Virus record (IMG/VR): IMGVR_UViG_2778261646_000012
Direction: 5' to 3' (one strand)
DNA from: a virus
Taxonomy: Duplodnaviria; Heunggongvirae; Uroviricota; Caudoviricetes; Autographiviridae
Length of the DNA: 5,187 nucleotides
The notes below the pieces were generated by a model that saw only the letters and a program-made list of their open reading frames with translations, was not told where the DNA came from and ran no database searches. The position numbers were made by a program, and so were the translations under genes. The number at the start of each line of letters is the position of its first letter. The stretch's first letter is position 1. Below are positions 555 to 649 of this stretch, one piece after another.

Positions 555-579
555 TTCTCCTCCTGCACGCTGTGCGTAG

Positions 580-592
580 CTACACAGTGTAG
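580..592. promoter_or_regulatory. 13-bp perfect palindrome CTACAC-A-GTGTAG; candidate RHH operator upstream of mnt
   Basis: Perfect inverted repeat with a 1-bp centre, read directly from the sequence. It lies 26-38 bp upstream of the mnt start codon. A second short inverted repeat GCAC-gct-GTGC lies next to it at 565..575. Confidence 0.5.
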
Positions 593-603
593 GCAAAAAA
601 TTT

Positions 604-631
604 TTGACTTTAAATAAACACGGTGTAGTAT
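604..631 (+). promoter_or_regulatory. Candidate sigma70 promoter for arc-ant (Pant-like)
   Basis: -35 TTGACT (604..609), 16-bp spacer, -10 TAGTAT (626..631). Predicted transcription start is near 638, about 26 nt upstream of the arc start codon. Hexamers identified by eye; no experimental support. Confidence 0.45.
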
Positions 632-649
632 TTAGTTATCACGGTGTAG
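619..649. repeat. Two perfect 10-bp direct repeats CACGGTGTAG (619..628 and 640..649), 21 bp centre to centre; candidate operator half-sites
   Basis: Exact repeats seen in the sequence. Each contains a CAC-G-GTG palindromic core and shares the GTGTAG arm with the palindrome at 580..592. The first overlaps the candidate -10, the second the predicted transcription start region. Confidence 0.55.

Follow-up and report, generated by a model that had tools for sequence, protein, structure and literature searches.

The Arc and Mnt proteins of phage P22 are textbook models of DNA recognition by a beta-sheet and of a secondary immunity switch built from two repressors. The stretch of viral DNA analyzed here (5,187 bp, hereafter the window) carries two divergent ribbon-helix-helix (RHH) genes of this kind, one mnt-like and one arc-like, and the 109-bp region between them (555-663) carries a palindrome and a pair of direct repeats. 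Which of the two repressors reads these motifs, and how are they arranged around the promoters? Our analysis indicates that the motifs are probably three copies of a 13-bp RHH operator dyad that controls the divergent promoters of an immI-type anti-repressor module.

Results

The window carries the immI module of a CUS-3-like prophage

We identify the window as the immI (mnt / arc-sar-ant) module of an E. coli K1 prophage resembling CUS-3; its positions 128-3869 are 99.95% identical to a prophage remnant in E. coli O7:K1 CE10. The mnt-like gene (306-554, minus strand) encodes 82 residues, with an RHH domain and a C-terminal region homologous to the P22 Mnt tetramerization region; the arc-like gene (664-804, plus strand) encodes a 46-residue protein that is RHH only. 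It is followed by a full-length sar antisense RNA (799-864, minus strand, including a terminator hairpin at 803-834), which scores 67.6 bits with Rfam RF00262 against a gathering score of 43 (E 2.4e-13), and by the antirepressor gene ant (866-1795, plus strand), whose product has KilA-N and P22AR_C domains and is annotated in CE10 as 'phage antirepressor Ant'. A terminator scan places an intrinsic terminator after ant (1813-1840, plus strand), in a stretch 83% identical to P22. The window has the gene set of a P22-type immI: divergent mnt and arc-ant RHH repressors, an antirepressor, and sar between arc and ant. Published CUS-3 carries a different mnt allele, 36% identical to that of the window.

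At the nucleotide level the module is a mosaic. Positions 797-837, which include the sar terminator hairpin (803-834), are 93% identical to P22, whereas mnt, the control region and arc show no such nucleotide similarity; matches to P22 are limited to the sar terminator and the 3' half of ant.

Several features surround the module. The product of an intact endosialidase tailspike gene (1896-4841, 981 aa) combines a P22-type head-binding domain with endosialidase domains and an S74 chaperone domain. In CE10 this gene carries a frameshift annotation, and the prophage there is a remnant that an IS3 element has cut. Downstream of mnt lies a truncated Clp-protease-like ORF (109-306, minus strand) of 65 aa, compared with 178 aa in CE10. 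Positions 1-127 have no match in the 3 kb upstream in CE10, which points to a deletion or recombination junction near 128. At the other end, an ATG at 4995 is directly followed by 27.1 perfect copies of the heptanucleotide TCAAGAC (= AAGACTC; 4998-5187), a tract that runs past the end of the window. We take it to resemble the phase-variable tract of neuO, the K1 capsule O-acetyltransferase gene of CUS-3-type phages; the CE10 annotation at this position is an acyltransferase. A clp-mnt-arc-ant module whose control region is 95% identical to that of the window also occurs in the lambda-like siphovirus PhiR12_5 (L161 / PV340554.1; 37301-39313 of the locus), where tail genes L and K flank it; the module thus travels as a moron from one phage type to another.

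The motifs are best read as three copies of one dyad

A first-pass annotation of this DNA had reported a 13-bp palindrome, CTACACAGTGTAG (580-592), and two exact copies of a 10-mer, CACGGTGTAG (619-628 and 640-649), 21 bp apart from start to start, and all of these coordinates are exact. The palindrome is a perfect 6+1+6 dyad. The two 10-mers turn out to be the right-hand parts of imperfect 13-bp dyads, and the motifs are best read as three copies of CTACAC-N-GTGTAG, which we designate O1 (580-592, perfect, CTACAC-A-GTGTAG), O2 (616-628, imperfect, AAACAC-G-GTGTAG) and O3 (637-649, imperfect, TATCAC-G-GTGTAG). O2 and O3 are embedded in a 19-nt direct repeat (610-628 / 631-649, 79% identical). 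A possible, weak fourth site, CTGCAC-G-CTGTGC (563-575), lies beside the mnt ribosome-binding site and is degenerate, agreeing at 8/12 arm positions; the sequence at this position in PhiR12-type relatives, CTGCACGCTGTAG, is stronger (10/12).

The motif is concentrated in this one place. GTGTAG/CTACAC occurs four times in the 5187-bp window, always inside 580-649, and within the window CACNGTGTAG is confined to the three motif places. Exact matches to the motif pattern number four, all at the cluster, with the palindrome counted once per strand; when up to one mismatch is allowed there are six matches in the window, compared with 0.80 expected. When the 109-bp intergenic region was shuffled 20,000 times, 2.8% of the shuffles contained a palindrome with arms of 6 or more and 0.34% an exact direct repeat of 10 or more; the two arose jointly in 3 of the 20,000. 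A scan of 50 kb around the E. coli CE10 locus found the motif at the mnt/arc intergenic region only, against 0.17 expected. Full-text literature searches returned no description of this operator set.

We also considered a LexA box at 570-585. The sequence there, CTGT-N8-ACAC, is a near-match to CTGT-N8-ACAG, yet it departs from that consensus and is not conserved in the PhiR12-type sequence or relatives, and we rejected this reading. Separately, PhiR12_5 contains the sole exact CACNGTGTAG match outside immI (49700-49760), in the promoter of a dinI-like gene and inside apparent LexA boxes (CTGT-N8-ACAG); we judged this match to be coincidental.

Two dyads overlap a predicted rightward promoter and one lies on the mnt side

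A sigma-70 consensus scan identified a candidate rightward promoter, Pant (604-631, plus strand), with a -35 element TTGACT at 604-609, a 16-bp spacer and a -10 element TAGTAT at 626-631, just downstream of an A/T tract (595-603). It scores 11.5 with a position weight matrix (PWM) that, as a positive control, recovered both the annotated P22 Pant and Pmnt. A promoter at this place also ranks first among rightward candidates in all 48 of the related loci described below, although this agreement is partly built in, because a TTGAC/TTGGT match in that region was used to anchor the loci. Given Pant at 604-631, O2 takes up the spacer and runs into the -10 element, whose first three bases it provides: the TAG of GTGTAG is the start of TAGTAT. 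O3 lies over the predicted start (~638), and the center of O1 falls 18 bp upstream of the start of the -35 element, on the mnt side. The earlier proposal that the direct repeats overlap the -10 and start region of a candidate rightward promoter is thereby supported.

The leftward promoter is placed with low confidence. The best candidate for Pmnt (586-614, minus strand) combines a -35 element TTTAAA (614..609), a 17-bp spacer and a -10 element TACACT (591..586) that sits inside O1. Its PWM score is 9.0, compared with 13.1 for P22 Pmnt, and it is the commonest top leftward candidate among the relatives, although it leads in no more than 17/48; in 8/48 the P22-like position leads. For both placements O1 lies between the promoter and mnt, consistent with the earlier assignment of the palindrome to the mnt side.

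One contig, L018 (IMGVR_UViG_2675903606_000016), is identical to the window except for four changes, all of them in control elements: the -35 element (TTGACT to TCGACT), the A-tract (AAAAAA to AACAAA), O2 (GTGTAG to GTATAG) and the Arc-like protein (GIRIP to GIHIP, at a conserved Arg). These could reflect decay, selection against Pant, or sequencing error.

Dyads recur at fixed positions in related loci

To the window we compared two sets of loci. The first consists of close relatives, 12 distinct intergenic sequences with the same Mnt-like head (PhiR12 phages, IMG/VR contigs and Tatumella terrea). O1 (580-592) is invariant in all 12, while 573-579 and 593 vary, and across the region the site columns are less variable than the rest (Fisher p 0.001-0.003). 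The bases that do vary in O2 are one in the left arm (618) and the center (622); the center base of O2/O3 changes from G to C in three of the 12, as expected for an unspecified center.

The second set comprises 48 distinct intergenic regions, collected by searching with the shared head (a four-sequence alignment) as well as with the Mnt-like protein. Each is flanked by a long and a short RHH gene that diverge from it and have heads fitting P-x-G-[IVL]-R-x-P; the sources include Tatumella, Xenorhabdus, Atlantibacter and Rosenbergiella genomes, Erwinia phage Midgardsormr38, Edwardsiella phage Edno5 and many metagenomic viral contigs. No Arc-only or Mnt-only locus of the motif family was found; seemingly unpaired loci had partners. 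When 13-mers were scored against the degenerate consensus YTWCAY-N-RTGWAR, the 48 regions contained 131 dyads matching at 10/12 or better, compared with 11.3 +/- 3.5 in shuffles, with the proviso that the consensus was derived from the sequences it counts and only the positional clustering is independent of it.

That clustering is pronounced. Relative to the start of the Pant -35 element, an O1-type dyad occurs at offset -18 (-17 in one) in 48/48 loci, an O2-type dyad at +18/+19 in 36/48, and an O3-type dyad at +39 to +45 in 39/48. O1 and O2 are 36 bp apart wherever both are present (36/48), despite arm sequences that vary and an O2-O3 spacing that may be 21, 22, 24 or 27 bp. Arms differ by clade (GTGTAG, ATGTAG, ATGTAA) and the dyad layout is kept. 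Relatives can hold full 13-bp dyads at all three positions, for example CTACATGATGTAG at O2 and O3, from which we conclude that the 'direct repeats' of the window are degenerate dyads rather than a tandem pair of half-sites. Part of the conservation of O2, which overlaps the -10 element, could stem from promoter function. Taken together, motifs that are kept while their flanks vary and that hold fixed positions in 48 related loci look like operators, as the first-pass annotation had supposed.

A departure from this layout occurs in Xenorhabdus and related loci (L045, L046, L095-L100). These keep O1 (ATCACAGTGTAGC), and two direct GCTACAC repeats, 11 bp apart and downstream of the -10 element, replace O2/O3, which suggests that the half-site is usable as an independent unit. 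The Arc-like head in these loci ends R-I-[ED]-P.

The sites track the Mnt-like head

The Mnt-like protein has a Pfam Arc domain (PF03869) and matches PDB 1mnt over residues 4-74 (E 4.8e-5). By BLASTP, its residues 4-79 are 33% identical to residues 2-81 of P22 Mnt (E 1e-12), and its C-terminal region aligns with P22 Mnt residues 62-81. Homology thus runs from end to end and predicts the features of the Mnt repressor family, an N-terminal RHH and a C-terminal tetramerization helix, together with the corresponding oligomeric state.

Mnt of P22 contacts DNA through Arg2, His6, Asn8 and Arg10. The head of the Mnt-like protein is ARDISPLGIRIP, and HMMER aligns its A4-R5-D6...P9-L10-G11-I12-R13 with A1-R2-D3...H6-F7-N8-F9-R10 of P22 Mnt. 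Both arginines are kept (R5 and R13, equivalent to Arg2 and Arg10), whereas Pro and Gly stand in place of His6 and Asn8, a pattern that fits the conservation of the CAC-N-GTG center and the divergence of the outer arms.

In the family, bases in the dyad vary with the head. Where Ser replaces Mnt Arg5, dyad positions -1/+1 are T/A in 28/28 cases, and where Arg is present, position -1 is C in 61/68; the family loci are phylogenetically related, and this covariation may rest on few independent events. The Arc residue equivalent to Mnt Arg5 showed no association with the -1/+1 bases in the family loci. EC.P3 and 611R6 make the same point: they have a common Arc head and different Mnt heads, and their three sites differ (ATAGCAAAGTG versus ATATCAC-N-GTG), indicating that the sites track the Mnt head.

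The Arc-like protein most likely uses the same dyads

The Arc-like protein matches Pfam Arc (E 4e-12) and both Arc and Mnt in the PDB, and it is 41% identical to P22 Arc over 37 aa. Like P22 Arc, it is a short, RHH-only protein and the first product of the ant operon. It departs from P22 Arc in its head, which resembles that of its own phage's Mnt-like protein and not the P22 Arc head, MSKMPQFNLRWP. The Arc-like and Mnt-like heads of the window are identical at 10/12 positions, compared with 5/12 for the heads of P22 Arc and Mnt (counted by hand on the P22 sequences), and the two proteins are 57% identical over 35 aa. The DNA coding for the two heads forms an inverted repeat (510-542 / 673-705, 79%). 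The near-identity of the two reading heads went unmentioned in the first-pass annotation.

A head and an operator distinct from those of Mnt would be expected of a member of the Arc family, but neither was found here. A search for the P22-type arc operator (TAGA-box) gave 0 matches with up to 3 mismatches, and no second type of conserved motif was found among loci with the common Arc head, ARNIPPTGIRFP. An N-terminal arm and beta-strand that are nearly the same in the two proteins suggest that both probably use the same sites, and the simplest reading, which we consider the most likely, is that the Arc-like protein binds the same dyads.

The strongest competing explanation holds that the sites serve the Mnt-like repressor only and that the Arc-like protein binds elsewhere or to a subset, for example O2. 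It has the covariation on its side, since the -1/+1 bases follow the Mnt head and not the Arc head, as well as the precedent of P22, which has separate operators and whose Oarc sits much as O2 does (+15 versus +18). Since site type does not track the Arc head, the case for Arc binding rests mainly on head identity in this sub-lineage and on the lack of another motif. We nevertheless regard a Mnt-only role as unlikely, given two heads that agree at 10/12 positions, the lack of a TAGA-box match with up to 3 mismatches, and the lack of a second conserved motif among loci with a common Arc head. N-terminal residues, as Knight & Sauer reportedly showed in 1989, set the specificity of Arc and Mnt.

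Arrangement of repressors on the dyads

The target of P22 Mnt, a palindrome that forms a single dyad, is bound by a tetramer; its 7-bp half-site is GTGGACC, with the highest specificity at the G in position 3 (PMC2726951). The equivalent half-site of the window, GTGTAGG, agrees with it at 4/7 positions (GTG.A in common), including the G at position 3, which is kept in every family variant seen. By homology to P22 Mnt, the Mnt-like protein would probably occupy each dyad as one tetramer, with one dimer per GTGTAG half-site.

The first-pass annotation had instead envisaged a single dimer bound to the palindrome, at the mnt side, while a cooperative tetramer held the direct repeats at the ant side, phased by their 21-bp spacing. 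Exact 10-mers 21 bp apart do invite this model, as do the similar flanks of both copies, and the same spacing is found in L032, L044 and L114. However, the two-turn phasing is not conserved across the family, relatives have full dyads at O2 and O3, and a P22 Mnt tetramer occupies one palindrome (PMC2726951). We consider the dimer-plus-tetramer arrangement quite improbable and its proposed stoichiometry not upheld.

An arrangement that we hold to be just as improbable has one dimer on each dyad and a Mnt tetramer that links O1 to O2 over the Pant -35 region. A C-terminal oligomerization region is present in the Mnt-like protein, and the constant 36 bp between O1 and O2, in all 36/48 loci with both and despite sequence divergence, would be expected of such a bridge. 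But 36 bp is ~3.4 helical turns, which leaves the sites out of phase, and sites embedded in overlapping promoters would explain a fixed spacing equally well. All 12 arm positions are, moreover, conserved, which fits two dimers per dyad (compare the P22 half-site GTGGACC).

Finally, we give almost no weight to the notion that the motifs bind no protein and represent leader RNA structure, or promoter sequence together with what is left of a 21-bp duplication: O2 does contribute TAG to the -10 element and lies with O3 in the 19-nt direct repeat, but O1 and O3 are outside the core Pant hexamers and yet conserved across genera at fixed offsets, dyad symmetry persists while arms change (GTGTAG, ATGTAG, ATGTAA), and shuffled sequences fold as well as both leaders and the palindrome do (z +0.80, -0.28, -0.34, +0.19).

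A model for the switch

We propose that one tetramer per dyad and a site shared by both repressors would operate as follows. Repressor at O2 (spacer and -10 element) and at O3 (start site) would exclude or block RNA polymerase, leaving ant silent. In the lysogen, the Mnt-like protein would be made and would occupy O2 and O3, keeping the arc-ant operon off and the main repressor safe from Ant. Mnt has the same role in P22, where silencing of ant protects the main repressor in the lysogen (PMC11016777). Whichever plausible mnt promoter is used, O1 comes between it and the mnt start codon, and occupancy of O1 should therefore shut down mnt; O1 may thus limit mnt through autoregulation by Mnt or through repression by Arc. 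Once a cell has been infected, Pant would supply Arc-like protein, and this would turn off both promoters by binding the same dyads, an outcome that P22 Arc achieves via its own operator (PMC11016777). The two repressors would differ in oligomerization and timing and not in target sequence.

Two points sit uneasily with this model. A perfect O1 on the mnt side implies strong autorepression, which is absent in P22 Mnt, and the best Pmnt candidate, with its score of 9.0, ranks first in just 17/48 relatives.

Discussion

The system described here is a variant of the textbook P22 immI switch and not a new kind of system. The module has been kept and rewired: a single type of operator is present three times, the mnt side carries an additional operator, and the reading heads of the two repressors are nearly alike. 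We suggest, tentatively and with some doubt, that it represents a widespread class in Enterobacterales phages, both P22-like and lambda-like, in which a paralogous Mnt-like tetramer and Arc-like dimer share one operator code and a fixed three-operator geometry (-18, +18 and ~+40 from the -35 element) around back-to-back promoters. Discrimination in such a class would come from oligomeric state and timing, and not from sequence specificity as in P22. If this is true, the family offers a natural series of heads and operators (GTGTAG, ATGTAG and ATGTAA arms; Arg or Ser in the N-terminal arm) for the RHH recognition code, and a simple test case for the division of labor between paralogous repressors that share sites. 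In practical terms, the findings predict which K1 prophages are hetero-immune at immI; they open no new field.

How closely does the control region follow P22? With X01916 as the P22 reference (Pant -35 element at 302-307), the two modules agree in gene order and orientation, sar RNA, ant domain content and position upstream of the tailspike gene. The resemblance of the motif core to the P22 mnt operator, which the first-pass annotation offered from recall, is real: P22 Omnt is aGGTCCACGGTGGACCt, and the O1 core shares 8/13 positions with it in register. O1 has the symmetry of an Mnt-type operator, a dyad with a CAC-N-GTG center. In location it is O3 that corresponds to Omnt, as both overlap the start of Pant (+39, over the predicted start, and +43 from the -35 start, respectively), and O2 (+18) occupies the Pant spacer as P22 Oarc (+15) does.

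The differences are equally clear. Omnt is present once in P22, whereas the window has three, perhaps four, copies of its dyad. Symmetry spans 13 bp in the window and 17 bp in Omnt, and the outer arm is TAG instead of GAC. The mnt start codon is 49 bp from the -35 element, compared with 22 bp in P22, and the 27 extra bp hold O1, on the mnt side. Unlike Oarc, O2 is of the same sequence type as O1 and O3, and the window has no TAGA-box. P22 immI pairs two distinct operators, Omnt and Oarc, with two specificities; the window has one motif type.

A nearly unchanged P22 mnt operator was encountered far from this family. Between divergent RHH genes of Rhizobium deserti (L060) there are two copies of GGTCCACGGTGGGC, which is almost the P22 mnt operator, beside a gene for a protein with the head TREDPPLRIRLP. 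Judged by these sequences, a P22-type Mnt operator code occurs in an alphaproteobacterium.

Iterated operators are familiar from other RHH proteins. The met-boxes of MetJ, the heptads of omega and the operator of CopG consist of contiguous repeats with a period of 7-8 bp. The control region of the window resembles them in having several copies of one short motif, of a kind read by RHH dimers, near or within a promoter. It differs from them in its layout, with three dyads placed 36 and 21 bp apart that serve two divergent promoters.
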